Translations under genes and position numbers: made by a program
Shown here: positions 9,400-36,104 of the stretch, one piece after another
How positions within the stretch are numbered: the stretch's first letter is position 1
Layout: the number at the start of each line of letters is the position of its first letter
Notes under the pieces: generated by a model
What the model was told of the DNA's origin: nothing
The model's database searches: none
Seen by the model: the letters and a program-made list of their open reading frames with translations, nothing else
UHGV virus genome: UHGV-0139000
Origin: a virus
DNA length: 41,137 nucleotides
Reading direction: 5' to 3' (one strand)

Positions 9400-9402
9400 G
9401 AA

Positions 9403-12689: not shown

Positions 12690-12692
12690 GTA

Positions 12693-13133
12693 TTAAAACT
12701 CCCCGAGAACCTGGTCAATCTTGCCACAGTCAAACACCCACGGCATCGTATTACCGGTTTTAGCGTTGGCGTTATCCGGTTGCTTCTGGAACGCAACACT
12801 GCGTGCCGTGATGATGTCGCCGCTGACCTTGTTGCGGATCACGATAACGTTATTCCCCCATGTGGCAGAAGACTGGCTCTGTGCGTTATACGCCAGCGAC
12901 AATTTTTTATTTGTCGGTGATGTCTTCAGAAGGTTAACGGTAATCGTCCCGCTTTTATCTGCATGGAGACTGTGCATCACTTCGCCATCAGCACCGATGG
13001 TCATGGTGTTTTTAGGACCGCCCATCGCAACCACAATCCCCTCTTCAGAACTTGCCGAACCGTACCCGAGGTCAATCGAACCTGTCGGCCCGGTCAGCGT
13101 CGCAGTGACATCCATAAAAGAATAGGTAGACAT
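12693..13133 (-). CDS. tail tube protein
   Basis: 146 aa immediately downstream of the sheath gene; myovirus sheath-tube-chaperone-tape measure order. Confidence 0.55.
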   Translation of the reverse strand: MSTYSFMDVTATLTGPTGSIDLGYGSASSEEGIVVAMGGPKNTMTIGADGEVMHSLHADKSGTITVNLLKTSPTNKKLSLAYNAQSQSSATWGNNVIVIRNKVSGDIITARSVAFQKQPDNANAKTGNTMPWVFDCGKIDQVLGEF

Positions 13134-13143
13134 TCACTTCCCC

Positions 13144-14289: not shown

Positions 14290-14292
14290 AGC

Positions 14293-14859
14293 TTAATCTC
14301 CGAAAAAGGTGACTGGTGCTTCCACCAGCGATTTAATACCGTACTCGCGCACAACCTTCCGGCGCAGACGCACCGTCATATCGTAGCGGCGGACCCATTG
14401 CTGATTAATAAGTTCAGGGAAGGGAGTCAGACCTGTGTAATCGCCAAGAGACAGCCCCAGCGCATTCAGTGCTGCATTGTTCTGCGGCACAGATATACCG
14501 TCACGAAACCGGGACGCATACACCATCCCCGCCGGTCCATAAAACGAAGCCATACACTCAATCGTTTCATGCCGCCAGAGCTGAGAGCCATCATCGGTCT
14601 GTCTGGTGAATGCCGGACTGTCATCACCTGACCATCCGATAACCCCAAACGCACACCAGTTCGTTTCAACCGGTAGCAGTGGCGGCTGCTCTTTCTGCCA
14701 GCGCGGGCGAACCATCCCGGCAGACAGACCGGAAACGTTACGCATCCACTGGCTTAACAGCCTGTCGAGCGCTTCGTCATAATCCGGATCGCCACTGGTT
14801 GGTATTAACCATCCGCGCTCTGTACTGGTGTTATTGCTCAACCGGAGTTCCCCCATCAA
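14293..14859 (-). CDS. head-tail/neck structural protein, hypothetical (188 aa)
   Basis: Compact operon position between head and sheath. Confidence 0.4.
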   Translation of the reverse strand: MMGELRLSNNTSTERGWLIPTSGDPDYDEALDRLLSQWMRNVSGLSAGMVRPRWQKEQPPLLPVETNWCAFGVIGWSGDDSPAFTRQTDDGSQLWRHETIECMASFYGPAGMVYASRFRDGISVPQNNAALNALGLSLGDYTGLTPFPELINQQWVRRYDMTVRLRRKVVREYGIKSLVEAPVTFFGD

Positions 14860-15220
14860 ACGGCATCAACTCACAATGCGCCTGAACGAATCCGGCCCCA
14901 TAAGCTGTATACGGGTCGACGAAGGTCACACGATAATCACGGCCCTGATACGTCACGATATCGGCATCACGGCCAGTCTGTCCCTGCGTCAGTCGCTCAG
15001 TCGTCACAATCAGAATTGCACCGCTGATTACCTGCCCTGCCTGCATACGGCGGTTTTCCAGAGAGCGATCAACAGTTACGACTCCGGCAAACTGCTTTTT
15101 AACTTCACTGTCGCTGCCGATCCCGTCCTCATCCACCGTTTGCACTCGGCGTGTTACCCACAAATTGAAGTCGCAAAAATCGGGGTCAAAAAGCACATCT
15201 GTTACATCAAGAGTCGGCAT
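14831..15220 (-). CDS. head-tail joining protein, hypothetical (129 aa)
   Basis: Operon position; overlapping starts and stops. Confidence 0.4.
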   Translation of the reverse strand: MPTLDVTDVLFDPDFCDFNLWVTRRVQTVDEDGIGSDSEVKKQFAGVVTVDRSLENRRMQAGQVISGAILIVTTERLTQGQTGRDADIVTYQGRDYRVTFVDPYTAYGAGFVQAHCELMPFDGGTPVEQ

Positions 15221-15761
15221 CTTTATCCCTCACTACATGGGTAATCGCTCTGCGATATTGCCCGGTGTCAATTAATGGTTTCGCCAGATCGGTTCCGGGA
15301 GATTCGCCAGCAACACGCCGGGAAAGTTCCAGTGTTGCCCCCTTGCGCCCCCGACGAGCCCGGGCTTCAACAGTGCTGTCAGCAAGCGGCGTAAAGCCGG
15401 TAATAGTCATGTAACGCCTGACGCCATTAGCGGCCAGCGTTCCGGCACGGTTGAGTGCGCGTTCTGCTCCCGCAGCATTACCATCAAGAGCAGCCTGCGC
15501 CGCGGTTTTGAGCTGCGGCACCGTCTGCTCTTCTGCCGATTTAACGCCGGGGACCAGGTGAGGTCGTGGCGGGATGTTCTGCTCTGGTGAGCCGTATTCG
15601 TTGAGGTAACCGATGCCCGCATTACCAAACGGAACATCATCCCGCTCGCTGTCTTCCGAAGGGATGCCGACCAGCACATCTTTTTTGGTTAACGACCTGA
15701 GCGCATCCAGAATGGCCTTAGCGTTATCCACCCTCGTTGTTACACCGCTTTTGAAACTCAT
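15207..15761 (-). CDS. head-tail joining/neck protein, hypothetical (184 aa)
   Basis: Operon position. Confidence 0.4.
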
Positions 15762-16165
15762 AGCTGGCGACCGCCTGCACCGAACATCGTGATCAACTGA
15801 TAAAATTCAGCGCCATATCGGGTGTTATTCCAGAAACCTGCATCAGGATTCAGCGTCGCGCTGGTGTCATAGCTGACGCTTACCTTATCCACGGACTTTG
15901 AGGACTGAACACCATTGGTTGAACCGCCCGGACCACCAGCCAGCATCGCTCTGCTGTCTGCCGCCCAGAGCGTCATGTAGTGCGCAACGAACAATCCGGC
16001 AAAGTACGGAAACAACTTTTTGCCGGTGACGTTTTCACTCAGCAGTTCATCGGCCAGATTCAGACGAAACTGGATTTGCGCTTCGGGATATTTGGCAGGG
16101 TCAGCAAACTGCGGGAAGTCGCGGCGAAAATCACTTACCGCTGGCAGACTTTGATTCTTTGGCAT
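15758..16165 (-). CDS. head-tail connector protein, hypothetical (135 aa)
   Basis: Operon position after the capsid gene. Confidence 0.4.
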
Positions 16166-16352
16166 TTTTTACCTCGTTACGCGCGTCTGTGGCTTTGCCA
16201 ACGGATACTTCCGCGTGCGCACGAGTGAACCAGTGCGTGGCAACTTCTTCCTCCACAGCATGACGGCCTTTAACAAACTCGCGCCGTGAACCGTCGGGAA
16301 GCGTGAGCACAAACGGGGTATGTACGTGTATTACTGCATTATTTTTTGCCAT
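16131..16352 (-). CDS. hypothetical small structural-module protein (73 aa)
   Basis: ORF between the capsid gene and connector genes. Confidence 0.35.
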
Positions 16353-16393
16353 CGGGTCATCCTTAATGGCCCCGCCAGGGGGCCATGTGGCTG

Positions 16394-17335
16394 TTAAATG
16401 CCATCAACGTACGAAATGGTTTCTTTGTACACTGGCTCAACCGCACCCAGCTTGCCGTAGTAAGTGACGATCTGATACAGACCGCGATACTGCACCGGCA
16501 CGCTCTGAAGCGGAACCAGCGGGTAGCGGACGTATTTTTTATCGTTGGTGTACGCAACCATGCGATCCTTTTTCCCCACACCACGGCCTTTCAGCCATTT
16601 AACCGCGCGGATATTCAGCGGAACACCGTTCTGGTGATAGCTGATGGTGTTGGTCTGAAGATACGTCAACAGGGACTGGTTACCCGCAGATGAAACGATG
16701 ATGCTGGACAACAGAGCAAACTGCTCAGGCGGGATCAGCAAATCACGCGGAACCACAGAGTAACCGGAAGCGGCCCACGCATCAGACAGCACCTGGTTAA
16801 TGCTTGCGCGGATTTCGTCCGGTGTTGAGGTTGCCCACGTTTTAGCAGCGTTGTTGACAGGCACGCCGTCCAGGGTAACAAGGCCTTTCAGGTTTAATGC
16901 GGAATCGCCAACATATACCTGTTCATCGTTATCCATCTGCCATTTCAGTTGCATACCGTCATACTTCTGCGTATCAATCGGGCGGCCGACCTGCTGAGCA
17001 GCCTGCAATTCTATGACCGTCCAGCCAAGTTCCATCCCCCACAGGTTCAGCGGGTTACCGGATTTGCCGATATCCACGTTCACGCCAGCAATAGCGGTTG
17101 AGTCTTTGCCTACCCAGTTTTTGCCATTCGGATTTGCACCAGTACCCGCAGCGGCGAAGCTGGTATTCGTCCAGCTGGAAATGTCATCTGCGATGGAGAC
17201 ATCTTCACGCAACTGAATATCGCGGGTCCAGGTGTACCCCACCAGTGGCAGGTTCAGCGTCTGGTCGAGTCGCTCCAGCTCCCCGATGAGAAAGGCACCA
17301 GAGCTGTCAACGGTTGCCTGATCAAAAGTAATCAT
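16394..17335 (-). CDS. major capsid protein (putative)
   Basis: 313 aa following scaffold-like and decoration-like genes; a GC-rich hairpin (16362..16381) follows the stop. Confidence 0.55.
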   Translation of the reverse strand: MITFDQATVDSSGAFLIGELERLDQTLNLPLVGYTWTRDIQLREDVSIADDISSWTNTSFAAAGTGANPNGKNWVGKDSTAIAGVNVDIGKSGNPLNLWGMELGWTVIELQAAQQVGRPIDTQKYDGMQLKWQMDNDEQVYVGDSALNLKGLVTLDGVPVNNAAKTWATSTPDEIRASINQVLSDAWAASGYSVVPRDLLIPPEQFALLSSIIVSSAGNQSLLTYLQTNTISYHQNGVPLNIRAVKWLKGRGVGKKDRMVAYTNDKKYVRYPLVPLQSVPVQYRGLYQIVTYYGKLGAVEPVYKETISYVDGI

Positions 17336-17346
17336 TCGTCTGTTCC

Positions 17347-17853
17347 TTAAATCTTCCAGGAAATTTCTGCATTGCCGTCAGCATCACCGGCACCTGTGAA
17401 TTCAGCGTTGGTCAGCACCACATTTTTGCCACTGACTGACGTGGACATGAATCCACCCAGCGGCACTTTGATGGATTCATCAGTGGAGACGACAACGTAT
17501 ACCGGGTCGCCTTTTTTGATGGTGCTGGCATCAAAATCAGAACCGAGATTAACAGTCACGTAGCCACGCTTCATGGCGTCGCCCGGGAAGTTCTTGCCTG
17601 TTCCCACCTGGCGAACCATGTCCGGCTGCGACGTGGTCGGATAAGGGCGCACGTAGATCCCCTTCACCTTGTCTGCGGTATCACCATCTGCCAGCGGCAC
17701 GAAAAAACCGTCATCATCGTATTTACCAGCCAGGCCATAGGCAGCGAAGGCGTTATCGGATTTAAGGACCACCGGTTCGACGGTTAAGTCCTGCGGGCGA
17801 GAGATAGCCCCGGCAATGCCAACAGGCATCCGGTACAGAAATACATTATTCAT
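17347..17853 (-). CDS. head structural/decoration protein (putative)
   Basis: 168 aa between scaffold-like and capsid genes. Confidence 0.4.
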   Translation of the reverse strand: MNNVFLYRMPVGIAGAISRPQDLTVEPVVLKSDNAFAAYGLAGKYDDDGFFVPLADGDTADKVKGIYVRPYPTTSQPDMVRQVGTGKNFPGDAMKRGYVTVNLGSDFDASTIKKGDPVYVVVSTDESIKVPLGGFMSTSVSGKNVVLTNAEFTGAGDADGNAEISWKI

Positions 17854-17856
17854 TTT

Positions 17857-19077
17857 TTACCCTTTACGGTTTGCCCAGAATTCAGCGTTTTGTTTGTTCA
17901 GGGAAGCGATACTGGTCATGCCCATGTTTGGGCGCTGTGCATCGCCGGTGGTGGCGCGGGTGTTTCGCCCTTTGGCAATCTCAGACACGGCATTAAACGC
18001 CATGTCGACCGATTGTTTCGGCAATTTGCGGATATCCGCATCACCGACGATCTGGCGAACCAGCGTTTTATCTGCGGAAGCCAGAACCTCGCGTTTGAAC
18101 TCGGTCGGTTTCATCTTACGGCTCAGATCGATACCCGGAACGATAACTTCGGCACGCCAGGCTGAGTCACCAGTAATCGTGGTTTCCTCTTCATCGTCCT
18201 CGCCGTCACCGGTCGGATTATCGTCAGGTTTATTATCGTTATCACCCGTGGCATTTCCTTCCAGCTTAGCCAGCAGGGCTTTCAGTAATGTTTTGAGGTC
18301 ATCATCACTGTCGCCGGTTGGACCTCCACCCATCTCTGGTGCTTTGTCCGGTAGTGGTTGCTGCGGGGACAGGTTGATGTTGAGATTAACGCCCTGCGGC
18401 AAATCTCCCTCATCTCCTGTAACCGATGCGGGAGCCGACTCCACCAGTTCGTTCATGGTGTCGGCATCTCCTGTCTTGATGGCTGCACGCATGCGGTTCC
18501 ACCAGTTTTTCTTTTGATTTGCCATTGTGTCTCTGTCTCCAATTGCACAACGATTTCCGGCTCTGCCTTTGGGGACAAGAGCCACATGGTTTCCGGTAAT
18601 ATCGACCTGCTCGGCTTTACCTGGCTCGGTCTGCTCGTACTCCGCGTCATAGCCGCACGACACTTCACGCAGGCCATCTTCGATAAGCTGAATGGCGTTT
18701 TCGTCTTTGACGATAAGGTCAGCCAGCATTAAATCAGACTGCTCACCCGTCCCGCGCCGGACATTCTGGAGGTGCCCGACAGCAAGCTCTTTCCAGTTCT
18801 CGGGATTTACCAGCCGCACATTCCCGTTTTCATCTTCAGGATGCAGGATCGTGATGCTCATCCCTTCGAATGAGGCAAGCGTGGCCGGATGGAATACCTG
18901 CTCAGGAGAACGCGTGACGACTATTTCACCGAACTTATCGGGTTTCAGTTTTGGCAGATCATCAGCACCATAGAGCTGCTTACCTGTTCGTCCTATCGGC
19001 ACGTCTCTGCACAGCAACGAGCCGTCAGCCAGCTGGTAGCGGGTTTCTCCCAGCCGGGTATTGAAAAAATATTTCAT
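17857..19077 (-). CDS. head scaffolding / prohead maturation protein (putative)
   Basis: 406 aa with a strongly acidic low-complexity stretch (GDSDDDL...DGEDDEEETT) typical of scaffolds; lies between the Mu F-like and capsid genes. Confidence 0.5.
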   Translation of the reverse strand: MKYFFNTRLGETRYQLADGSLLCRDVPIGRTGKQLYGADDLPKLKPDKFGEIVVTRSPEQVFHPATLASFEGMSITILHPEDENGNVRLVNPENWKELAVGHLQNVRRGTGEQSDLMLADLIVKDENAIQLIEDGLREVSCGYDAEYEQTEPGKAEQVDITGNHVALVPKGRAGNRCAIGDRDTMANQKKNWWNRMRAAIKTGDADTMNELVESAPASVTGDEGDLPQGVNLNINLSPQQPLPDKAPEMGGGPTGDSDDDLKTLLKALLAKLEGNATGDNDNKPDDNPTGDGEDDEEETTITGDSAWRAEVIVPGIDLSRKMKPTEFKREVLASADKTLVRQIVGDADIRKLPKQSVDMAFNAVSEIAKGRNTRATTGDAQRPNMGMTSIASLNKQNAEFWANRKG

Positions 19078-19091
19078 GGGTTACCTGCGAT

Positions 19092-19865
19092 TCAGGCGGG
19101 ATAAGATTGGGAGGTGGGAAAAACGATTTCTTTATAACAGCGACAATTCGGGAGCTCGCCAGCATGACCTGTCATGCCGTCAAGCGTTGGAGGTTTGCCC
19201 CATTCGACAAATTTACCTTCCATTTCCTGATGAGAATGCCTGACGTCACCATCTTCGGCTGTACGCCAGATATAACCATTCGAACCAATTGACAGCGCAC
19301 GCGCCTGATCCAGCGCTCCGGTTGCACGTCCAAGTTCAGTACGGGCAATCAGGTCAGCTCTGGACTTTGCTATATCACCCGATGCGGCTATTTCTTTAGC
19401 AAAATGTTCCGCTCTCCCACCGGTAACAACAGCTTCTGTCGCCCGATTCTGGATGTCGTACACCCTGTCAGCCGCCTCGAGGGGTAGCGATTTGATGTAC
19501 TTAACCTGTTCAGCAACGATGGATTTCATCACCTGCCCTGGAGGGGCACTGTTTACCAGATTGCGTAGCTCACGGCTGATGGTTTTGCTGTGTTTACGCC
19601 ACTGCTCATCATTCTTGCGCACAATGTCGGCGGTAAAGTTTTCCGCGACCTTTGTCGCCCAGGGGGTGATGATTTCACTGTAGCGTTCCAGCGCCTCAAT
19701 AATTTCCGTGATACTGTCATTTGAACCATCGTAGCGACCATTTACGATGTCCCCGACCGCCCGCGCTATCCTGCGTAGACTGGTTCGATACCGGATTTCC
19801 GCCTGACGGTTCCTGCGGTTCGTCATCAGGTTCGCCGATGCCGGGCGGCGCTTCGTCTTCGGCAT
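19092..19865 (-). CDS. minor head morphogenesis protein (Mu gpF / SPP1 gp7-like)
   Basis: C-terminal ARTELGRA and HAGELPNCRCY motifs recalled from the Mu F family; immediately downstream of portal. The start may be an internal Met because of the long overlap with portal. Confidence 0.65.
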   Translation of the reverse strand: MPKTKRRPASANLMTNRRNRQAEIRYRTSLRRIARAVGDIVNGRYDGSNDSITEIIEALERYSEIITPWATKVAENFTADIVRKNDEQWRKHSKTISRELRNLVNSAPPGQVMKSIVAEQVKYIKSLPLEAADRVYDIQNRATEAVVTGGRAEHFAKEIAASGDIAKSRADLIARTELGRATGALDQARALSIGSNGYIWRTAEDGDVRHSHQEMEGKFVEWGKPPTLDGMTGHAGELPNCRCYKEIVFPTSQSYPA

Positions 19866-21183
19866 TCTCTATGTCCTCGTCGGTAATGGATGCCCCGATG
19901 CCGGTTACGTCAGAATTTTCGCGCAAATCAGTCATAGCGGCTTTCAGTGTCATCAGACCATCACCCAGCGCTGTACTGATTGCGTTGGTGGTATTTAGCG
20001 CCACCGTTGAACGATCGACATCAGACATTTGCCAGAGCGGGTTAAACTCAAACGTGAAATCATCCGGGAGCGGCTTGCCAAGTTCCGAACGATGCATGAT
20101 GTCCAGTATCCGCCGCACCGGAAGACGTAAACGCCTCTCCTGCAACGAGCTTACCCGGTCGTAATAGTTGGCAAGGTCTGCATCGCCGGTAGAAAATCCC
20201 TTCGGGGACTGTCCGAACAACCGCACCAGAGGGATACCAACAGCGCCACTAATCTGTTCTGCAAACTGTGAAAGGATGTCATCCAGACCACTGAAGCTGT
20301 ACTGATGGGTTTCAAACTTATCCCGCGAGTCCATGAGAGTCATGCCTTCATTGCTCTGGAACTGTCGAATCAGGTCAATATTCTTCAGCAACGCTTCATA
20401 CGCAGGACCACCAAATGCGATAAGCTCGCGTAGCTTCTCCACGCTGTAGGTACGCAAATGCGCTTTGTAGACCAGCTGCGCCGTGCCGACAGTAGCGCTG
20501 TCGAACGCAGTAAGACGATCCCAGATACGCTCTACAACCGACATTCCCCATTCGTTCTCGGTCATCTTCTGCTGAAATGGCAACGTGACGCCATCAAAGC
20601 GAATCAGGCGACTGTGATGAATGCGCCAGGCAGGAATTCCCGTTGCTGTGGTCACCACATCGTAAAACTCAGGTTTACCCAGGTCCGGCCCCATATCTTT
20701 AATGCGGCGGGTCAGTACCGGGTCGATCATCCAGCGGTCGAGCGGGAGAATCCCCTTAAACTTGCCCTTACCGATGGTTTCGGGTCGCAGCGGGGTCATT
20801 GGTGCCTGCCCCTCAATCATGATGAAACCCACCGCGCCGCCGTAGAGGCGCGACCATTTCAGCACGTCATTCAGCGCATCCCAGATTTGCAACTCATCCA
20901 GTTGTGATTCGAGAATGCCACGATCTTTTGCATCAATTTCCGAAGTGATGCGAATGCCTTTGCGGGTCATATCATCCGGGATAGCATCGACTGCTTCGCC
21001 GATAATCCAGGATGAACGATAGGACCATTCCACCAGCATGCGGTTACGACTGGTGAAATTAGCCCGGTAGGTGGATGCTGAGTGCTGGTTAGGTGTCTGC
21101 ATCCCTACGCGGGCAATAAAATTCTCATAACCATCAGCTGTGGCCTGCGCAGTTCGCCGCAGGGCTTGTTTGTTTCGTGCCAT
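19717..21183 (-). CDS. portal protein
   Basis: 488 aa directly downstream of (and overlapping) the large terminase; acidic C-terminal tail. Confidence 0.7.
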   Translation of the reverse strand: MARNKQALRRTAQATADGYENFIARVGMQTPNQHSASTYRANFTSRNRMLVEWSYRSSWIIGEAVDAIPDDMTRKGIRITSEIDAKDRGILESQLDELQIWDALNDVLKWSRLYGGAVGFIMIEGQAPMTPLRPETIGKGKFKGILPLDRWMIDPVLTRRIKDMGPDLGKPEFYDVVTTATGIPAWRIHHSRLIRFDGVTLPFQQKMTENEWGMSVVERIWDRLTAFDSATVGTAQLVYKAHLRTYSVEKLRELIAFGGPAYEALLKNIDLIRQFQSNEGMTLMDSRDKFETHQYSFSGLDDILSQFAEQISGAVGIPLVRLFGQSPKGFSTGDADLANYYDRVSSLQERRLRLPVRRILDIMHRSELGKPLPDDFTFEFNPLWQMSDVDRSTVALNTTNAISTALGDGLMTLKAAMTDLRENSDVTGIGASITDEDIENAEDEAPPGIGEPDDEPQEPSGGNPVSNQSTQDSAGGRGHRKWSLRWFK

Positions 21184-22805
21184 CAGACCTGTCTCCCTAG
21201 CAGCTCCCAGATGTTCAGGGCTGAATTCATTGGGGCATAGTTGATCATCACCGAGTCGGCAAGATTTGGCGACCGGGTCCCATCAGGCTGTTTATCAATA
21301 ACGATTTTTCCCACACCATTAATGGAATAGGTCGGCTGCGAAAGCTCGATGATGAGTTTATCTTTGAGTGCCATGCTACTGCTGATTGAGATGATTTCGT
21401 CCGGGTTGTAAGCCATACCTTCAACCACGGCGCGCCAGGTATTCTGAAAAAGTTTACGTAACCGCCACCAGCTTTGGGCTTTGGCGTTAGCGAAGAAGTC
21501 CTTGTTCAGACGTGCGGCTTGCCCGTTGTCCCCGCGAACAGCTTCATCATCCGGATCAAATACCGCGCCACTACCTCGAAACGGTGTGGCGAGTATTGAC
21601 GGTCGACGCGCAGCGTTACGCAGTTCGTTGATAGCGCGTGCATCGCCGCGAACGCCAGCGCCCAGCCCGTCCTCGTCAAAGCGAAACTCTTCGAGGTTAT
21701 CCTGTTCGCAAAAGCCGAAAACCTTCTCGACGGACTGATAAATGTAGCTGCCCACACCAGACCATTCCCGCACATTTTCCAGGAGGAAGCCATGACGGGT
21801 GGAAAAGGCATTTTTGTCCCTGCCTTCGTCGGCGACATCCATCGCGCCAAGTCGTTTGCCTGTTGGCTGGATACCCAGTTTGATATGCGCATCAACGGCA
21901 GCCTGTACCCATTCGGATGGAATCAGGACGCCTTCCGCTGATGCGCTGTAGTTCAGATCAAGTTCCTGTGCCACCACCACCGGATTATCGATTTTCTCGC
22001 ATTCCCTGCGATACCACTCTTCATCCTTGCGAGGATCATCCCGCCAGTGGAATGTGAATACCGGTATCTTCCCGCCATGACGCTTCTGAGCGAACGGGTT
22101 AGCCATGCCGTTAACTGAACTCAGGTCAATACGGCAACGCGTCGTTTGTGACAACGCCGCATCAATCAGCAGAGGACGCTGAAGGAATGCAGCCTCATCA
22201 ACCAGATAAAGCGTGGTACGGTCACCACGACCAATATTATCGCCAGCCTCGCCTTTGATAACGGCACCAGTTTCAGGAAACTCAACACGCATATATGGCG
22301 CGTGCTTCTTCTCGCTCCACGAACCGCGAAACTCTACAGGTAGTGTTTCCACGAACTTGCGCGCCTTCCAGAACAATGCTTTCGGGTCACCGGTGCTGTC
22401 GACGTATTCCTCTTTACGGGAGCCGAAACCGATAACCATTTCTTTGTTGAAGAGACAAAGCGAGCAGGCCAGTCCGATCGCGGTCCAACTGAGCCCCATT
22501 TCACGGGATTTTTCGGTAATACCATTCTCCCGATTGCCCCAGCGTTCCATAATCCAGTGGATCCACTCCTCCTGTTTAGGGAAGAGTAAAAACGGAATGG
22601 TCACCGGCAGGCCATAATCAATATTACGCGGGTCTGTTGTCATGCCCCAGTCGATGATGAACTGAGCCGGGTTGGTACGGTAAAACTGCTTCAATACGGG
22701 CAATATTTCAGGATTCTGGCGAATGCGCTGTAGGCGTTCCATCCGCCATTCAAAAACCATCTGGTAATCAGGATGTTTAAAATCGAAGGGAAATGGTAAC
22801 GGCAT
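21183..22805 (-). CDS. terminase large subunit
   Basis: 540 aa at the head of the structural operon, directly upstream of portal; size and position typical. Confidence 0.8.
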
Positions 22806-22877
22806 ACCTAGCCCTAACTGTTGAAGTTATTATAAACTGGAAGCATATTACTTATGTTTATTTGAAAAGGAGATTTT

Positions 22878-23084
22878 ATGACGCCCGCAGTTAGTACCCG
22901 ATTATTAGAACTGACTCGTGATTTAAATAACGATATTAGAATCGCTGCTATCTATGCTTTAGGAGAAGGAGGTAATGCTACGCTATCAGCCGTTAACCGT
23001 CTTCTTGAGTTAACTCGTGATTCAAATAACGACATTAGAATTGCAGCAACCAAAGCTCTCGGACGTATTTTTCGGAGCAAATAA
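22878..23084 (+). CDS. HEAT-like repeat mini-protein (68 aa, two tandem repeats)
   Basis: Strong RBS (aaaggag, 6 nt before ATG). Protein has two tandem copies of RLLELTRD(L/S)NNDIRIAA...ALG; the DNA copies differ at synonymous positions. Antisense between terS and terL. Confidence 0.6.
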   Translation: MTPAVSTRLLELTRDLNNDIRIAAIYALGEGGNATLSAVNRLLELTRDSNNDIRIAATKALGRIFRSK

Positions 23085-23117
23085 GTAAAAATGCCGCTCT
23101 CTCCACGAGCGGCATAC

Positions 23118-23690
23118 TTAGCCCATCATTTTTCTATACGCCTCTGCAGCCTGCTCCGGCGTTAAGTTGGTAATTTCTGTTCTGACTGGTCCTCCATCAG
23201 CGCCAGTCACTTCATTTTTGACGTTGTCTTTAAACGCCTGAACAGAAACATGACGCCCAAGCAACTCAAGGTTTTTAACCTTATCAGGCCACTTAATCTT
23301 TTTAAGGATCCCGACCATTTCTCTGTCATCTCCTCGCCCCTCAAACATTTCAGCGAGGTTAAATCCACTCAGGTACCGACGCCACGATTCCGGCCACGCA
23401 GACAGAGGCTTAATACTTAAATCGTCCTCCAGGATGTCAGCCACATCGAGCCTGTCGATCTCAACCAGTCGCATCAGCACATAATTCGCATCAATGCCCA
23501 GTTGATCAATACGCTCCTGCTTTAGCTCGTTAATGCGGGCGCGTATCTCAGGTTTACCATATAGTTCAGCCCCCGTAACATGTGCTCGCCTGGAGGCATA
23601 GCCTGCGCGAATAGCTGCTTGTGTAGCATTCAGATCGACAAGAAACTCGCGACAAAACACCTCGTGTTTTGCTTTCAGCTTCTTAGTCAT
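23118..23690 (-). CDS. terminase small subunit
   Basis: 190 aa with N-terminal HTH-like [25 protein letters not shown]; upstream of terL. Confidence 0.7.
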
Positions 23691-23751
23691 TTTATTTTCC
23701 AGTTATCAGGTCATTATCGAAGCCCCTCCTGGAAGAGCTTCTGTAATGCTA

Positions 23752-24276
23752 TTACCGGGACTGTTCTATTTGTCGGACACCAGCCAACTGGTTATTCGCC
23801 TTCTCGATGGCTGCCAACAGTGGGTTAATCCACAGAACAGCCTGGCAATATGTCAACGTTCTGGTGGTAGTGGCACGATCACTGGCTGAGTCAATGTCCC
23901 CGGAATCGGCGTGCAATGCGCTGGCGCGTAAACGGTTCGCGTAGTTGAGCAACCCGACAGCAATATCAGCAGGAACAGGGAAATCACAGTTCTTTTCACG
24001 GAGCAGAACCTCACGGTATTTGATGACTGTCTTCTCGTGACCGATGTCGACCAGAGAATTTAATCGGCTTGCGTTTTCTGCTATCTGGTTAAAACGATTG
24101 AAGTTTAATGCCTGATTAGCTATCACTTTCCCTTGATATTCAGCTTCACCTTCCGCTTTATCAGCCCGCAACTTTTCTGCCTGATACTTGCTGTGGTAAT
24201 GGTTTGCAGACCAGACGAGCGCCCCAAAGGCAGAGAAGAAAAATGCCGCGATGACAATCTTATAAGTCAGCTTCAT
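23752..24276 (-). CDS. Rz-like i-spanin
   Basis: N-terminal transmembrane helix then a charged coiled-coil-like region; last gene of the lysis cassette; contains an embedded lipoprotein ORF. Confidence 0.7.
   Translation of the reverse strand: MKLTYKIVIAAFFFSAFGALVWSANHYHSKYQAEKLRADKAEGEAEYQGKVIANQALNFNRFNQIAENASRLNSLVDIGHEKTVIKYREVLLREKNCDFPVPADIAVGLLNYANRLRASALHADSGDIDSASDRATTTRTLTYCQAVLWINPLLAAIEKANNQLAGVRQIEQSR
23853..23999 (-). CDS. Rz1-like o-spanin lipoprotein embedded in the +1 frame of Rz
   Basis: GTG start with GAGG 9 nt upstream; translates VKRTVISLFLLILLSGCSTTRTVYAPAHCTPIPGTLTQPVIVPLPPER: lipobox LLSGC, Pro-rich, 48 aa; wholly inside Rz. Confidence 0.65.
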   Translation of the reverse strand: MKRTVISLFLLILLSGCSTTRTVYAPAHCTPIPGTLTQPVIVPLPPER

Positions 24277-24736
24277 TTACCACCCCACCAGCATCTTTAA
24301 ACCTGGAAATCAGGTCACCGATTTTATGTTCATACTGACCGTAACCTGCGCCAGGTAACGACGCCCAGATATTGCTGCAACGGTCGATTGCCTGACGAAT
24401 ATCGCCACGGTCAATCATCGGTAAAGCGCCACGCTCTTTAATCTGCTGCAGCGCCACAGCGTCCTGACTTTCTGGCGAAAAATCTTTCAGGCCAAGCTGC
24501 TTGCGGTAGGCATCCCACCAGCGTGAAAGAAGCTGATACCGGCCTGCAGCTGTTGATTTAAGCTTCGAGTTTAGCGTGACAAGTTTGCGAGGGTGATCGG
24601 AGTAATCAGTGAACAACTCACCTCCGACGATAACGTCATAACCGTGATTACGTGTCGGTTGTCGCCCATTATCCGTTCCTTCTGACCATGCCACCATATC
24701 CAGGAAAGCTTTACGTTGGGAATTTAGTGTCTGCAT
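24260..24736 (-). CDS. R: endolysin, lambda R-like lytic transglycosylase
   Basis: QRKAFLDMVAWSEGTDNGRQPTRNHGYDVIVGGELFTDYSDHPRKLVTL...GRYQLLSRWWDAYRKQLGL is very close to lambda gpR as I recall it. Confidence 0.8.
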   Translation of the reverse strand: MQTLNSQRKAFLDMVAWSEGTDNGRQPTRNHGYDVIVGGELFTDYSDHPRKLVTLNSKLKSTAAGRYQLLSRWWDAYRKQLGLKDFSPESQDAVALQQIKERGALPMIDRGDIRQAIDRCSNIWASLPGAGYGQYEHKIGDLISRFKDAGGVVNEADL

Positions 24737-24739
24737 GAA

Positions 24740-25099
24740 TTACTCCTTAGAGCCACCAAACTTGTTACCGATTACTCGCATTGCAGCCCCACGAATAGCA
24801 TCGACACCGATCAGCCCAACACCACCACCAATGGCAACAGAAAGCGATTTAGGCCATCCAACATACTCAAGAGCGGATGCAAAGGTCAGCGTCAGAGCAC
24901 CACAGAGCAAAATCTCAAGCGTTTTTCGTTTCCAGCCGCCGCCACCGCCAAAATAGGCAATGCGCAAGCCAGCCATAACAATTGACATAACCACTGCGCC
25001 CAACGGCGTATCTCCACGCCACCAACTTTGTAAGAGTTCCAGTAAGTCAGGCCAGGAATGAGGAGCATTGTGCATTTTCATACTTCCCACCTCCGCCAT
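24740..25099 (-). CDS. holin (putative)
   Basis: 119 aa with hydrophobic helices and Gly-rich stretches, directly upstream of the endolysin; possible dual-start N-terminus (M...MKM). Confidence 0.55.
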   Translation of the reverse strand: MAEVGSMKMHNAPHSWPDLLELLQSWWRGDTPLGAVVMSIVMAGLRIAYFGGGGGWKRKTLEILLCGALTLTFASALEYVGWPKSLSVAIGGGVGLIGVDAIRGAAMRVIGNKFGGSKE

Positions 25100-25182
25100 T
25101 ACGGGGTGTTGTTGAAAGGCGGGCCCTGCGTATACGCCCGTAGGATTGGGTTATGAGCCGTCCTTCGGTGGGCCCTGAATAC

Positions 25183-25205
25183 AAAAAAAGTTCGCCATAG
25201 CGAAC
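25183..25205 (-). terminator. rho-independent terminator in the late leader (tR'-like)
   Basis: Minus-strand hairpin gttcgc-tatg-gcgaac (25190..25205) followed by seven T (plus-strand A run 25183..25189); about 85 nt upstream of the holin start. Confidence 0.55.
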
Positions 25206-25435
25206 CTTGTTAAATTTGTTAAAAAAGGAAGTTATTTAACATAATGTACGTTATAGGAACCACACGATCCCCGCTCGCAATAGATTTGCGATGAAAGGCC
25301 TATTTAATCAACTTAAGTGGTCCAGAATGACGAAATTCGAGTGAATAAAAGGTGCATAAAAAAGGGCAAAAACTGCATAGCGTTTTTTCGCGACGAAAAC
25401 CCTGTTTTATTAACTTTTACTGAGAATAGAGCATT

Positions 25436-25459
25436 AAAAAAGGCCCCCTTGCGGGAGCC
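25436..25459 (-). terminator. rho-independent terminator downstream of the Q-region genes
   Basis: Minus-strand hairpin ggctccc-gcaa-gggggcc (one mismatch) followed by six T (25436..25441). Confidence 0.45.
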
Positions 25460-25526
25460 TCTTCGTGATGAACTGTTTTCAACAGATATCAGGCTAATCG
25501 GCTTTTTGGAATTCCACAACTATTTT

Positions 25527-25868
25527 TTATCTTACCTTGATGCCTGATGCCGTCAGATGTTTACGACAGTCCTGAATACCTTCGTTATAACCCGCATCGT
25601 AGAAGCTATCCGGCTTTGCCTTCAGCGCAGGAAGCGTAACGCTGGTAGCTCTTCGTTCGGCCAGAACACCTGCCTGAAAGAGTGTCCACATCAACTGAAC
25701 TGCTGAATCACAGTAAGTAACATCTTCACTGTACAATTCTCGTTCAATCCTGATGCCAAGTTGAGCCTTCATTGATGCGCCAATATTACCTTTGGCCTGC
25801 AACGACAGGTCTGGGTACCTCTGTTCCATGAAGCTTTCAAATCTGTTGCGAACGCTGATCAGAGCCAT
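25527..25868 (-). CDS. hypothetical protein (113 aa) downstream of Q
   Basis: ORF with phage-like codon usage; no motif recognised. Confidence 0.45.
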   Translation of the reverse strand: MALISVRNRFESFMEQRYPDLSLQAKGNIGASMKAQLGIRIERELYSEDVTYCDSAVQLMWTLFQAGVLAERRATSVTLPALKAKPDSFYDAGYNEGIQDCRKHLTASGIKVR

Positions 25869-25899: not shown

Positions 25900-26322
25900 T
25901 TATGCCGCCGAGCAGCTCCTACGCAAAGTCCTGATAGCCTGAGGCTTTGACTGAACCGACTGATCCATTTCGAGCACCACATCCAGCATGGCTAAGCAAC
26001 CGTCAATAAATCCCTCTGCCGCCTGAAGCCTCTTCAGAACGTGGGTGTGAGATACGCCGAGCTTCTCACCCATCGCCCTCACGGGCATGGCCTGGACGTA
26101 ATGCCACTCAAGGAGCGTGCACAGATACGGATCTTTTTTCTTCAGGCAGCTCATAGCGGAGTTGATGATAAGACCGTCATTGTCACTGCATTTCAGCCTT
26201 CCAGACTGCGTCGCGGGTAGCAGATTCTTAAACCCGGCTGCAACAGGAGGAAAGTAGACGCTACCACCTTCACTCGCTGCCCAGCCACCCCAGCGCTCTA
26301 AAACCTGTTGAATATTACGCAT
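25900..26322 (-). CDS. late-gene antitermination protein Q-like
   Basis: 140 aa, N-terminus MRNIQQVLERWGGWAA resembles enterobacterial prophage Q-type antiterminators as I recall them; sits upstream of late leader, terminators and lysis genes. Confidence 0.55.
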   Translation of the reverse strand: MRNIQQVLERWGGWAASEGGSVYFPPVAAGFKNLLPATQSGRLKCSDNDGLIINSAMSCLKKKDPYLCTLLEWHYVQAMPVRAMGEKLGVSHTHVLKRLQAAEGFIDGCLAMLDVVLEMDQSVQSKPQAIRTLRRSCSAA

Positions 26323-26449
26323 AGCTCTGACCTCTACGTTTTGCTACGAAAAAATTTTCTGAGAACTACGTCTGTATATCCGTGGGTGTGGATAACGCAG
26401 TTCCGATTCGCATATTGCATGTATCAACATGCAAAAAGTTGCTAATGCG

Positions 26450-26645
26450 GAGTGGAACCACCTGCCCCCACCTGGAACCACCTTTTCCTAACCTTTCCCT
26501 CAATCGACTTATATATATATATGGGGTTTCTAGTAGAAAGGCGGTTCCAGTGGTTCCAGTGGTTCCGCCCCGCTTGCCACAAGGTCTGCAAGGTGGAACC
26601 TCCTTCTCTTTTAGGTGGTTCCGCGTGGTTCCAGCGGTTCCCAAA
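26450..26645. repeat. iteron-type replication origin
   Basis: Nine copies of GGTTCC/GGAACC (26454, 26474, 26543, 26552, 26561, 26595, 26617, 26627, 26636), several as GTGGTTCCA in both orientations, flanking (TA)n at 26509..26522; overlaps the 3' end of the primase gene. Confidence 0.7.
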
Positions 26646-28797
26646 CCTTGCATTTTTTCCCCCCAATTCGCCTTTGGGCACGCTTATACCCGCAATTTTG
26701 CAAAACATTACTAATTCGCATTTCTTCGCGTTTTCCGATGCGGTCAGGATTTAGCCCAATCGCATCACGCAAAACATCACTTGCGCGTAAAAATTCGCAA
26801 TTTCGCGGAAGTTCATTAGCCATCAGGTCTGGCGTGTCGAGCCATTTCTCTACCGTTTCAAGCCAAGCATCCTTGATGGTGTACTGTTCATGGACACTCG
26901 CTGCCAGTTGTTCAGCCTCACGGAACTGGATACCCCCCAGACGCTGAAACACCTCACGAGCCTCAGCCCAAAGTAAAAGGAGATCTCTTTTTATCGCTTT
27001 CACGTCGACTTTCGACACTTCCACGGGGAGCCAGCGACGGTTACCAGTCTTGTCCGCAAGGAATTCGTCCTCATTGGTGGTACCAACGAACACCAGGCGA
27101 CGAGGAAACTGGGTGGCGAACTCCCGGTATTTCGGGATCCAGTTTTCGTGAGTACGCGTCACAAACGCTTTGATTGACTCCAGCTCTTTGGTATTAAGTC
27201 CGCGCAGTTCACCAATCTCTGCCACCAGCCGACCACGCATTTTTCGAGCGAGATCATCGTCTTTTTCGGCAAAAGAGATTTCAGTAAAAAACGCAGGATC
27301 AGGGCTCAGTGCCTCCACTCCGGAAGACTTACCGCAGCCCTGCGGACCAACGAGGATCGGCACCATATCCGCTTTGATGCCTGGCTCCAGTACTCGCCCC
27401 GCCAACGCGGTCCACATGTACATAGACACCGCACGGGTATAAGGCGTGTCGGCTGTACCGAAGTGCGTATGGTAGAAACATTCGATGCGCGGCACGCCAT
27501 CCCACTCCAGCCCGTTCAGCCAGGTGATCGCTGAATCGAATGGTTGTTCATCGGCTGCAAGTAACACCACATCGCGAATAAGTTCACGACCAACAGGTTT
27601 AAATCCCCGCTTTTCCATCGTGATGCGCAGGCGCGCATAATCCGCATCGGTGAATGCTCGCCATTGTCCGGATCCTGCAGGGGCAAACATGATTTCGTCG
27701 CGGAACTGGTCAAAGCGAATATCGATGTCCACAAAATCAGGGCGTACTACTGCTTTGGCTGCGTTGCTGATGGTTGCCTCGATACGCCCCCATTTATCAC
27801 GCTCGAAAGCAGGCAGCGGTAAAGGTTCCGCCACTTCGGTGCTGGTCAGATCTTCGAAATCGTCGTTGCGGATCCCGATGGCATTAAGGAAATCTCCGTC
27901 ATCACGATGCGCACAACTGGCATGCAGGCATTTAAAATGCCCCTGCTCAAAGCCCGCGGTTCCCGCAGGAAAATAAGCTGTGCTTGTTGGATCGCCCCCG
28001 CTACTGTGGCCGTCTTCAAACGGACAGCGGATATATCGTTCACCATTTGCGCCATCCAGCAGCGTCCAGCCATTGGCATCAAGATATTCAGCTGTATCAT
28101 CCGTCGCGCCGGGCGTGAATGCTGATCGGTCGCGCATCTTCGTGTTGCCCGCTTCGGTGGTTACCGACACAGGGAGTTGTTCAGCCAGGCGCTGCCACAG
28201 CGTTTCAAGCTGCTCACCAGTAATAGCCGGAGGTTCATCCGGCAAACCACCGTCCCATTCAATACGCGCGCCGCTGCTGTGCGTACCACAGGCAACGAAC
28301 TGCTGCCCGTTCGCCAGCAACTCGATAATGCCCATATCCCCCGCCAGGCGATGGATACGCTTACGGAAATCACCATCAACGGCCAGCAGATACAGACACT
28401 TATTACTGTTTGCTCGCCAGCGTCGCGGCGGCAACTCCCCCAGAAGTTGCACAAGCGTTTTGCGAATATCTGCCTGAATGTCTTCATCTTCGCTATCGCA
28501 GTCCAGCGCCAGCCAGCCATGGCCTGTACGCACGCAGATGCCATAATCCGGTTCATTCGACCAGCGGGCAAAATCATGCTCAGTAACAACATACCCGGTC
28601 CATTGAGCAATACCGGTGACCTGGCGGTCCCGGTTATAGCGACTTGGCGTCTTACCCAGCGCTTTCAGTTTACTATCAGGGGATATGGTCGCACCGGGGT
28701 TACATACAACTGGGAGAAGATGCTCAGTTCTCCCCAATACCAGGTCGAAATGAAACCACTCATCAGGCGTAGCTCCCCATGGTTTGCTATCGGACAT
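26611..28797 (-). CDS. replicative primase-helicase (P4 alpha-like)
   Basis: 728 aa; Walker A VGPQGCGKSSG in the C-terminal half; N-terminal region primase-like; origin iterons at its 3' end; start 3 nt after the cro stop. Confidence 0.75.
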   Translation of the reverse strand: MSDSKPWGATPDEWFHFDLVLGRTEHLLPVVCNPGATISPDSKLKALGKTPSRYNRDRQVTGIAQWTGYVVTEHDFARWSNEPDYGICVRTGHGWLALDCDSEDEDIQADIRKTLVQLLGELPPRRWRANSNKCLYLLAVDGDFRKRIHRLAGDMGIIELLANGQQFVACGTHSSGARIEWDGGLPDEPPAITGEQLETLWQRLAEQLPVSVTTEAGNTKMRDRSAFTPGATDDTAEYLDANGWTLLDGANGERYIRCPFEDGHSSGGDPTSTAYFPAGTAGFEQGHFKCLHASCAHRDDGDFLNAIGIRNDDFEDLTSTEVAEPLPLPAFERDKWGRIEATISNAAKAVVRPDFVDIDIRFDQFRDEIMFAPAGSGQWRAFTDADYARLRITMEKRGFKPVGRELIRDVVLLAADEQPFDSAITWLNGLEWDGVPRIECFYHTHFGTADTPYTRAVSMYMWTALAGRVLEPGIKADMVPILVGPQGCGKSSGVEALSPDPAFFTEISFAEKDDDLARKMRGRLVAEIGELRGLNTKELESIKAFVTRTHENWIPKYREFATQFPRRLVFVGTTNEDEFLADKTGNRRWLPVEVSKVDVKAIKRDLLLLWAEAREVFQRLGGIQFREAEQLAASVHEQYTIKDAWLETVEKWLDTPDLMANELPRNCEFLRASDVLRDAIGLNPDRIGKREEMRISNVLQNCGYKRAQRRIGGKKCKVWEPLEPRGTT

Positions 28798-28800
28798 GGG

Positions 28801-29013
28801 TTAAGCCTTTTTATCGTTTTGTGAGCCATACAACAGCCAATTAGGGTCGCAATCCAATGCTATAGACATTTCAAGAAGATAACGTGGCCGAGCAATAACA
28901 CCACTTTCAATTCTGTTTATTGCCTGCTGGCTCACTCCTGTGAGCTCAGCCAACGTAACTTGCGTCATTTTGAGTTCTTTACGTCGTTCTTTTACTCGGG
29001 TCGCTAAGGTCAT
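28801..29013 (-). CDS. Cro-like HTH repressor
   Basis: 70 aa from the ATG at 29013 (GAGG 8 nt upstream); HTH MTQVTLAELTGVSQQAINRIESG; divergent from cI. Confidence 0.75.
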   Translation of the reverse strand: MTLATRVKERRKELKMTQVTLAELTGVSQQAINRIESGVIARPRYLLEMSIALDCDPNWLLYGSQNDKKA

Positions 29014-29133
29014 TGCTTTCACCTCATACAATTTTAGTGGTATTTAGCAACAACAAACGAGGTTTGTCAAATACAACAAAAATTGTTTTTAATGTGGGTA
29101 TACACATTAATACAACCCAGAAGGACTAATCCC
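29014..29133. promoter_or_regulatory. divergent cro/cI promoter-operator region
   Basis: Contains the operator-like dyad atacaa-N6-ttgttt (29071..29088), palindrome caaac-gag-gtttg (29054..29066) and an extra atacaa half-site (29110..29115). Confidence 0.55.
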
Positions 29134-29757
29134 ATGTCTCTCGCAGCCCGTTTTAAAGCACGTCGTTTGGAATTAGGAATGACTCAAGTGGAAGTAGCGA
29201 ATTCTGCAGGGGTTAGCCAACAATCCATAGAATCCATCGAAAGTGGACGAACCAGAAAGCCACGCAATCTTCTGGATCTGGCTAAGGCCTTGAAATGTAG
29301 CCCAGACTGGCTACTGAACGGTAAAAATATTATGCCTCTCGCGGAGATAAGTACCAGACGCATACCTATATTAAGTTACGTTCAGGCAGGAGAGCTTACA
29401 GAAGCAAGAGACATAACAGATCTGACAGGGGAATTTGAATATATTTTGGCAGACTCTGACATTCCAGAAACATGCTTCGCATTACGTATTGATGGCGACA
29501 GCATGCAACCAGAGTTTAAAGAAGGAGACATTGTTATCATCGATCCTGATCTATGTCCTGCACCAGGGGAGTTTGTTGTCGCCAAAAACGACGGTCACGA
29601 AGCTACATTTAAAAAATACCGTCCATTAGGAATCGGCATCGACGACTTTGAATTAATCCCCCTAAATCCTGATTACCCTATTTTTCGTAGTGCAGATATG
29701 AACTTACAGATCATAGGTGTAATGATCGAACACCGTATTTACCGCCGTAAACGTTAG
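29134..29757 (+). CDS. CI-type repressor with LexA-like S24 autopeptidase domain
   Basis: N-terminal HTH (MTQVEVANSAGVSQQSIESIESG); Ala-Gly cleavage site in SYVQAGEL; C-terminal domain with GDSM (Ser) and FKKY (Lys); AGGA 8 nt before the ATG. Confidence 0.85.
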   Translation: MSLAARFKARRLELGMTQVEVANSAGVSQQSIESIESGRTRKPRNLLDLAKALKCSPDWLLNGKNIMPLAEISTRRIPILSYVQAGELTEARDITDLTGEFEYILADSDIPETCFALRIDGDSMQPEFKEGDIVIIDPDLCPAPGEFVVAKNDGHEATFKKYRPLGIGIDDFELIPLNPDYPIFRSADMNLQIIGVMIEHRIYRRKR

Positions 29758-29775
29758 TATTCCCACCGTAAATAT

Positions 29776-29795
29776 CGGGAGGCGTAACAGCCTCC
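29776..29795 (+). terminator. hairpin immediately after cI (weak terminator candidate)
   Basis: gggaggc-gtaaca-gcctccc, 7-bp GC-rich stem; only a weak T tract follows. Confidence 0.35.
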
Positions 29796-29883
29796 CTTAC
29801 CCCATTTGTAAAGTCTTACAAATTAAATTCACTTAAATATCAATAAAGTAGTATTCACACCCCACAAAATACCACATTTGTGG

Positions 29884-29912
29884 TTTACACAATACAACTC
29901 AAATTGTATCTT
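29884..29912 (+). promoter_or_regulatory. early (PL-like) promoter overlapped by a perfect operator palindrome
   Basis: -35 tttaca (29884..29889), 16-nt spacer, -10-like gtatct (29906..29911); operator atacaa-ctcaaa-ttgtat (29892..29909) matches the 29071..29088 site at 17 of 18 positions. Confidence 0.5.
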
Positions 29913-30079
29913 TAGCCACAAGTCGAACGGCGCGACTCTAAACCATGCGTCGGGACCGTGGCGGGACAGGATGTCGGCAATACGGGTCAGTAAGTTCCCT
30001 TTGGGGTGCGGCGAAGCACTGTCTACTGATACAAGTCGAAGCCGCCGAACCACCAAAGTGAACTGAATGAGGAAACGGC

Positions 30080-30274
30080 GTGAAAACGTATAAACCGCTC
30101 AAAGGTGAATGCCCTGCTTGCCAAACACAGCTTCAGACACCAAAGCCAAAACGATACCAAATCAACGAATGTTATGAGCACTGCCCTGGATGTGGTGCTT
30201 TCCTGCATACCATTGCAACGCACTGGCGTGTCCGCTTCAACCTTGTGGTACCACGTACGCACAATACCAACTGA
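30080..30274 (+). CDS. small Cys-pair zinc-ribbon-like protein (64 aa), first early gene
   Basis: GTG start with GAGG 7 nt upstream; CPAC...CPGC pairs; followed by an intrinsic terminator. Confidence 0.5.
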   Translation: MKTYKPLKGECPACQTQLQTPKPKRYQINECYEHCPGCGAFLHTIATHWRVRFNLVVPRTHNTN

Positions 30275-30305
30275 ATCATCCATGTAATTGCTGTGTGTAG
30301 TCTTT

Positions 30306-36099: not shown

Positions 36100-36104
36100 C
36101 TCCT

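Follow-up and report, generated by a model that had tools for sequence, protein, structure and literature searches.

Why should a very small gene lie between the two terminase genes of a prophage, on the strand opposite to the operon that it splits, and what might its product do? The question is raised by UHGV virus genome UHGV-0139000, and the window is the whole stretch of 41,137 nucleotides (nt) analysed from it. The gene is a 68-amino-acid (aa) open reading frame (ORF) with an ATG start, at 22878..23084 on the + strand, encoding a two-repeat HEAT-like protein of the PBS-lyase/alphaRep type, here called mini-HEAT. It lies within 295 bp of foreign DNA (22815..23109, +) between terS and terL. 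Taken as a whole, this element is best explained as a phage moron, a horizontally acquired and self-contained transcription unit, a reading to which we assign a probability of roughly 0.7.

Insertion at the terS/terL junction

The DNA at 22815-23109, the moron proper, is a true insertion, placed at the exact junction of the terS stop codon and the terL start codon of a lambdoid, Q-dependent Escherichia coli prophage. Relatives with an empty site lack it; there, the two codons are 2 nt apart and a 15-nt junction sequence is present once. In the window, this sequence is present twice, as CGGCATAC[C/T]TAGCCC at 22800-22814 and again at 23110-23124, with 14 of the 15 nt identical and a spacing of 310. 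The left copy, CGGCATACCTAGCCC, duplicates the terS-stop/terL-start junction and now supplies the ATG of terL together with 9 nt upstream of it. The right copy, CGGCATACTTAGCCC, is identified by the repeat and by comparison with empty sites as the native junction, including the TAA stop codon that terS retains. The terS stop codon, the terL ATG and the 9 nt upstream have all been kept because 15 nt of the junction were duplicated. A repeat with a 14/15 match situated exactly at both boundaries of the insert is not a product of chance.

The empty sites are numerous. Four E. coli phage isolates, vB_EcoM-606R2 and its relatives, match the flanks at 99.2% and skip the middle. Both flanks are matched over the junction by 35 of the 40 records listed, and all 35 are exactly 310 bp shorter than the query. 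Related terS and terL genes, up to 99% identical to those of the window, occur in 350 of 5,426 complete E. coli genomes, only two of which (CAU16175 and EPSSH018) carry the insert. The window and phage 606R2 are collinear at ~98.6% over 10827-25583, with the insert as the sole break. The first-pass annotation, made from the letters alone, had spoken of an AT-rich gene inserted on the strand opposite to the packaging operon; the empty sites in ~350 E. coli genomes confirm the insertion, the G+C content of the insert is 0.380, and the ORF is on the + strand with terL and terS on the - strand.

Morons are described as additions relative to related phages, with a deviant G+C content and with their own promoter and terminator for expression from a repressed prophage (PMC3594210). 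The extra DNA between genes that adjoin in relatives is apparent from the exact 310-bp difference from ~350 genomes and four isolates. The composition is deviant, the G+C content of 0.380 comparing with 0.522 in terL, 0.483 in terS and 0.491 in the whole window. All the testable features of a moron are thus either found here or compatible with what was found, and the element is therefore classed as one; its sequence makes a moron architecture very probable.

Candidates for the mechanism of insertion are duplication at a staggered break, microhomology-mediated template switching and integration of a small circle. The CGGCAT of the right repeat copy forms the base of the stem of a hairpin described below, and this sharing suggests that microhomology was involved. 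A transposon or miniature inverted-repeat transposable element was rejected despite the 15-nt duplication: none of the inverted repeats found is a terminal one, no transposase is present, and the 295-bp sequence occupies one site per genome in two genomes. An integron cassette was also rejected, as inspection by eye found no RYYYAAC/GTTRRRY core pair at the insert boundaries. The donor of the allele in the window (allele 1) was not found; the other copies (L024, L054 and the two E. coli genomes) are the same locus, and a 32-nt exact-word scan of metagenomes for the donor returned nothing.

Two small sequence differences may be recorded here. The single mismatch between the repeat copies (window 22808 versus 23118) changes TAAGT-ATG to TAGGT-ATG on the late-operon strand, directly upstream of terL. 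As read from the sequence, the change might strengthen a Shine–Dalgarno-like AGG now that coupling to terS has been lost. The metagenome copy L054 (455-1155) differs from window 22600-23300 at two of 701 nt, both in the HEAT ORF and both nonsynonymous (R47H and S67I), which could be sequencing noise or a hint of ongoing change in the protein.

A two-repeat HEAT protein under selection

The ORF is preceded by the Shine–Dalgarno sequence AAGGAG (22867..22872, +), 5 nt 5' of the ATG, and its product is present in RefSeq as WP_024246483.1 under the generic label 'HEAT repeat domain-containing protein'. HEAT repeat 1 comprises residues R8-G29 (nt 22899-22964, +) and repeat 2 residues R41-G62 (nt 22998-23063, +). 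The two units have the same residue at 19 of 22 aligned codons, and 10 of these 19 residue-matched codons are different synonymous codons. The protein matches HEAT_2 (PF13646) with 38.9 bits (E=1e-9; gathering threshold 27.7) and HEAT PF02985 with 37.2 bits against a cut-off of 23.5. An AlphaFold2 model has a predicted local distance difference test score (pLDDT) of 90.8 and a predicted template modelling (TM) score of 0.80, and forms a four-helix solenoid with helices at residues 3-12, 18-30, 36-45 and 51-67. Its tandem antiparallel helix pairs are those of an alpha-solenoid, and its nearest PDB matches, the alphaRep artificial binders, agree with this (TM 0.82-0.84, root-mean-square deviation 1.2-1.4 Å, 28-35% identity). 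The first-pass annotation had recognised, by reading alone, a 68-aa ORF with a strong ribosome-binding site and tandem, synonymously differing repeats of HEAT/PBS-lyase type; what it read from the sequence holds throughout, and profile search and structure prediction bear out the HEAT type. The predicted product is a soluble, mildly basic, four-helix alpha-solenoid composed of two PBS-lyase-type HEAT repeats.

Homologues are few and uniform. A search of 5.8 billion proteins yielded 12 from Pantoea, Serratia, Enterobacter and metagenomes, with identities of 50-97% and a length of 68-72 aa in every case. When viral and genome contigs were scanned as well, the set grew to 47 related loci (a count that leaves out L054, a copy of the window locus) in Serratia, Pantoea, Enterobacter, Citrobacter and viral contigs, each with an intact frame of 68-72 aa. 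Clade A comprises the E. coli allele of the window and alleles from Serratia, Pantoea and other Enterobacteriaceae at an identity of at least 56%; the identity falls to 37-53% for clades B (Enterobacter) and C (Citrobacter and others). The ratio of nonsynonymous to synonymous substitution rates (dN/dS) is 0.09-0.28 where dS could be calculated, with synonymous sites saturated in most pairs, and variable columns in clade A number 35, 23 and 62 at the three codon positions. Two motifs are invariant in the whole family: AIYALGEG, with which repeat 1 ends, and GR..R, with which repeat 2 ends. Most members are mildly basic (isoelectric point 9-10), and no obvious membrane or signal segment was seen by eye in any of them.

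These sequences indicate a real gene under purifying selection. A chance ORF or antisense artefact is ruled out by the dN/dS and the codon-position pattern; the frame of an overlapping minus-strand ORF of 42 aa has a stop in every homologue. The gene might have been a degenerate piece of a larger HEAT gene, an origin that the first-pass annotation had tied to disrupted frames in related phages. As the homologues are all of 68-72 aa, with frames intact in 47 of 47 related loci and dN/dS of 0.09-0.28, this too is ruled out. The larger HEAT proteins are plentiful, with 10,770 matches in a profile search of 1.84 billion representatives, and those listed are almost all large multi-repeat proteins with generic repeat similarity. 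Among the best 150 of these matches, small proteins are limited to those of 68 and 72 aa, from the family itself, and one of 138 aa.

The gene is also rare. A member of the family is encoded in none of 50,697 sequenced phage genome records, and allele 1 in 2 of 5,426 E. coli genomes, in line with the earlier remark that such a gene is not a standard phage feature. The sequence comparisons indicate that the gene is dispensable, isolates such as vB_EcoM-606R2 being without the insert. A search for viral structural analogues in BFVD had as its best match a generic HEAT protein of a giant virus (E=0.076), and none of the papers searched mentions WP_024246483 or a HEAT-repeat gene at terminase genes.

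Gene neighbourhood and transcription

The large terminase gene terL (21183..22805, -) encodes 540 aa (phrog_2 'terminase large subunit', E=1.6e-31; RefSeq 'TerL protein') and is divergent from the HEAT gene, with 72 nt between their start codons. The small terminase gene terS (23118..23690, -) encodes 190 aa (Pfam Terminase_2, E=2.8e-31; phrog_51, E=3.4e-45) and is convergent with it. This geometry is not peculiar to the window. Wherever the flanks could be read, the HEAT gene runs antisense to the late operon, and at all of these loci except L044 it stands head-to-head with a terminase gene or a remnant of one.

In clade A the slot between terS and terL is the one occupied, and the start of the terL, an orthologue that is 69-86% identical and belongs to no Pfam family, is 72-75 nt away. 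The terS bodies vary between DUF2280 and Terminase_2 of 190, 340 or 164 aa. For clades B and C the partner is different: in 19 of 22 loci the HEAT gene starts 26-33 nt from the 5' end of an opposite-strand Terminase_2 terS. Ten loci have a complete or almost complete facing terS (171-190 codons), and nine have only a decayed remnant (18-104 codons). In at least seven of the remnant loci (L016, L021 and L047-L051) another, more distant terS is the functional one. Where a dead terS remnant lies beside the gene while a different terS does the work, the HEAT gene must be travelling with that fragment, and the remnant may carry the HEAT promoter. Examples of remnants are L016:5738-5971, L021:3855-3914 and L045:400-486, and the start codon of the remnant is lost in L021 and L047-L051. 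The HEAT genes of clades B and C occur with three types of terL.

A second allele (allele 2; 70 aa, 62% identical) occupies the same slot in the E. coli phages L033 (3975-4285) and L035, whose terS and terL are 99% identical to those of the window. It has no direct repeat and is accompanied by its own divergent first ~11 codons of terL, which indicates exchange of the cassette by homologous recombination. Identical copies of allele 2 adjoin either a Terminase_2 or a DUF2280 terS. It occurs in five of the 5,426 E. coli genomes, so that both alleles together are found in seven. The first-pass description of the locus was sound as far as it went; the 15-nt duplication, the empty sites, this second allele, the family-wide head-to-head arrangement and the moron class had no place in it.

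A feature of the neighbouring terS genes deserves mention in its own right. The small terminases of clade A have in common a C-terminal tail of ~39 residues, ...AAEAY(R/K)K(M/L)MG (window 23118-23234, residues 152-190; also L006, L010 and L018). They are otherwise unrelated (Terminase_2 of 190, 340 or 164 aa; DUF2280 of 157 aa) and have the tail whenever they precede this type of terL. From its distribution it looks like a swappable TerL-docking tail inherited with terL.

A promoter-like element is present within the insert at 22821..22849 (+), consisting of a -35 hexamer TTGAAG (22821-26), a 17-nt spacer and a -10 hexamer CATATT (22844-49) that ends 28 nt upstream of the HEAT ATG. The pattern TTGAnn-17-nATAnT recurs 27-30 nt upstream of the ATG in seven of nine diverged clade A alleles, within 72 nt that otherwise do not align, and weaker variants are found in the other two, L038 (best-scoring pair) and L006 (by eye). 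The GGAG upstream of the ATG is invariant in the clade A alignments. At the other end of the insert is the hairpin ATGCCGCTC-GTGGAGA-GAGCGGCAT (23115..23091), followed by a T run (23090..23081), the whole at 23081..23115 on the - strand being shaped like an intrinsic terminator of transcription on the late-operon strand. This hairpin has nine pairs, six of them G-C, and folds with z-scores of -6.5 (+ strand) and -4.5 (- strand) against shuffled controls; TTTTACTTAT follows it on the minus strand only. A hairpin before a minus-strand T run between terS and terL had been noticed in the first pass and is placed here at 23091-23115. Hairpins lie 3' of the HEAT stop codon in 17 of 18 loci examined, some of them being canonical or bidirectional terminators, as in L045. 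Rfam at gathering thresholds recognised no RNA family anywhere in the window.

The phage encodes a Q-like late antiterminator (25900..26322, -; phrog_79, E=1.5e-38; RefSeq 'antiterminator Q family protein'), and from what is known of lambdoid phages its late transcription should therefore pass the minus-strand terminator. By the same analogy, unmodified polymerase in a lysogen would be stopped at this terminator before running antisense into the HEAT gene. The sigma-70-type promoter TTGAAG-17-CATATT would drive the HEAT gene independently of the late operon and against it and, with a promoter of its own so opposed, the gene should be active chiefly in the repressed prophage. Once the phage grows lytically, late transcription antiterminated by Q would run head-on through the insert and dampen the HEAT gene.

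Several points tell against the moron reading. The promoter-like element in the window has 8 of 12 consensus matches, below the 9/12 threshold of a generic promoter scanner, and clades B and C have no convincing conserved -35/-10 pair. On the + strand the same hairpin stands directly 3' of the HEAT stop codon without a T run; with its T run confined to the opposite strand, the hairpin may fail to terminate the HEAT transcript, which could then continue antisense into terS. As for the strict adjacency to terminase genes, hitch-hiking could account for it in place of function. Finally, PADLOC-DB, PHROGs and NCBIfam gave generic HEAT-repeat matches only, the partial ones in PADLOC being to segments of far larger models, HEAT-ARM_XIII (3.4e-5; positions 583-636 of 1972) and HEAT_CxxC_PD-DEXK (0.0055).

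Outside the insert, the window is a mosaic. Segments 7092-10827, 25583-25865, 26347-30278 and 36087-37641 have no match or a weak one (66-71%) in the otherwise 96-99.5% identical 606R2; they are mosaic replacements that affect the tail/baseplate region, the spacer between Q and holin, the immunity region and a segment of early genes. Conversely, ~38.8-40.1 kb of 606R2 (gene 'TIR-like domain-containing protein') has no counterpart in the window. Between the holin gene and Q there is another small ORF (25317-25547, +) on the strand opposite to the late operon; its equivalent in 606R2, of 207 nt (27323-27529), encodes a hypothetical protein. This holin-Q region would also hold the late promoter and a terminator.

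Possible roles and comparison with known systems

A two-repeat HEAT module cannot be an enzyme, so this scaffold must be non-catalytic and work by binding another macromolecule. It is reasonably probable that mini-HEAT is a binder of protein (or nucleic acid) expressed from the lysogen, and the 'protein-binding adaptor' proposed at first fits a fold whose nearest solved structures are alphaRep binders. Binding would probably be through the conserved face on which the invariant motifs AIYALGEG and GR..R lie. Residues Y26, E30 and R63, which do not vary, presumably correspond to the positions that are randomised in alphaRep proteins to create binding surfaces, which suggests a conserved ligand. 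The likeliest role of mini-HEAT would be that of a prophage accessory factor with a conserved intracellular target, competition between phages or between phage and satellite being the most plausible setting.

The target could instead belong to the host. Mini-HEAT would then be a factor of lysogenic conversion, binding a cytoplasmic host protein and altering physiology or fitness, and the terminase site would be a tolerated slot carried along by recombination. Most characterised morons benefit the host (PMC3594210). The cassette does move with pieces of its flanks, 11 terL codons with allele 2 and terS remnants in clades B and C, and the putative binding face (Y26, E30, R63 and AIYALGEG) is invariant in loci from Escherichia, Serratia, Pantoea, Enterobacter and Citrobacter, as would be expected of a conserved host target more than of a fast-evolving phage one. 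Set against this, a gene present in 7/5,426 E. coli genomes seems too rare for a strong general benefit to the host, the protein has no signal peptide or membrane segment, unlike the products of most known conversion morons, and this reading gives no reason for the strict head-to-head geometry of three diverged clades. We consider a host-directed role unlikely, if not greatly so.

It is the geometry that invites an alternative modelled on TerI of Listeria comK prophages, a 65-aa protein encoded antisense and transcribed in lysogeny that targets the terminase; several unrelated small proteins at its locus act likewise (bioRxiv 10.1101/2025.02.27.640495). By analogy, mini-HEAT made in the lysogen would bind the TerS or TerL with which superinfecting relatives, or satellites hijacking TerS, package their DNA, and block this packaging. 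The prophage itself would be spared, since its own Q-antiterminated, head-on late transcription would silence the gene just when its own terminase is made. The head-to-head position next to a terminase gene (terL at 72-75 nt in clade A; terS at 26-33 nt in 19/22 loci of clades B and C; L044 being the exception), the constant antisense orientation where flanks are readable, the small, soluble product with the predicted fold of a binder and the precedent of TerI would all be accounted for. The alleles, however, do not co-vary with the functional terminase: allele 2 stands beside a Terminase_2 or a DUF2280 terS, clades B and C keep company with three terL types, and nine loci adjoin a dead terS remnant. 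The co-location would be explained equally well by hitch-hiking if the adjoining fragment merely carries the promoter, and no partner gene for self-immunity was seen. That the target is a packaging component is accordingly doubtful. A slightly longer shot is the full proposal that the mini-HEATs form a new class of packaging-interference proteins in prophages of the Enterobacterales, binding terminase or a satellite protein that hijacks it, with self-immunity arising from the head-on placement rather than from a partner protein.

The first-pass annotation had also suggested an anti-defence factor, which would inhibit a host immune system to aid the replication of the phage. Small, single-domain, accessory and patchily distributed phage proteins are often anti-defence proteins, and the predicted fold is of a binder type. 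Genes of this kind are typically switched on at an early stage of infection, as part of early operons or of leading regions. The HEAT gene, in contrast, is antisense in a late operon, opposed by late transcription and equipped with its own sigma-70-like promoter, the layout of a moron expressed from a prophage, and the PADLOC matches are to generic HEAT repeats only. With no specific support found for it, this suggestion appears improbable. Least probable is that the DNA or RNA is itself the functional entity, either separating terS from terL as a terminator or insulator or supplying antisense RNA that tunes terminase expression: a canonical minus-strand terminator does lie between the two genes, the HEAT transcript, for which there is no T-run terminator on the + strand, would be antisense to terS, and the insertion removes the 2-nt coupling of terS and terL, but the strong constraint on the protein (dN/dS 0.09-0.28, length fixed at 68-72 aa, saturated synonymous sites, conserved residues), the lack of conservation of the hairpin sequence and flanks between alleles and the absence of an Rfam match in the window all speak against it.

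To return to the moron reading, if the protein is made in lysogens it would be among the smallest natural alpha-solenoid binders, essentially a natural two-repeat alphaRep, and would represent a new accessory gene family of Enterobacterales prophages. Near-identical phages in which the slot is empty or contains allele 1 or allele 2 (62% identical) constitute a natural experiment for superinfection exclusion, packaging interference and host fitness. The locus also shows that an antisense unit of 310 bp with a terminator is tolerated at the terS/terL junction, where the two genes are normally coupled, and this bears on how antitermination of the late operon buffers mosaic insertions. Apart from these points, the locus is an ordinary case of phage mosaicism.

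Among known systems, TerI/TERi can be likened to mini-HEAT by description only: both are of ~65-70 aa and are encoded in a prophage on the strand opposite to a lytic operon, with expression in lysogeny (a candidate property here) and a conceptual link to the terminase. TerI is located in the early module and overlaps an opposite-strand gene, whereas the HEAT gene is in the packaging module on an intergenic insert of its own. TerI also has dedicated anti-TerI immunity genes; none were seen for the HEAT gene.

The likeness to PBS-lyase HEAT-like proteins (PF13646) and to alphaRep (PDB 3ltj and 4jw2) lies in the consensus ..L..L..D.d..VR..Aa.ALG..g, in a helix-turn-helix unit of ~31-33 residues and in a non-catalytic scaffold that works by binding. 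Mini-HEAT differs in having two repeats only, without a dedicated N- or C-cap. The natural HEAT relatives are mostly multi-repeat proteins of several hundred to thousands of residues and, among the matches listed, the standalone form of 68-72 aa is found in this prophage family only.

The closest comparison is with the phage morons, such as HK97 gene 15 and lambda bor, which are likewise extra DNA between normally adjacent genes (Juhala et al. 2000; Cumby et al. 2012, PMC3594210). Shared with these are a deviant G+C content, promoter-like and terminator-like elements of their own, dispensability for phage growth and a location in the late region. Lambda bor is antisense to the late operon, as is the HEAT gene. 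The HEAT element differs from them in splitting the coupled terS and terL instead of sitting at a module boundary, in a product predicted to be a soluble mini alpha-solenoid rather than a membrane protein, lipoprotein or secreted factor, in the fixed head-to-head geometry of its family with terminase genes, and in that its expression from the prophage is deduced from the layout of the locus. The moron class itself is familiar; what is new here is a previously undescribed family that joins a two-repeat mini alpha-solenoid to a head-to-head linkage with terminase genes in three clades.

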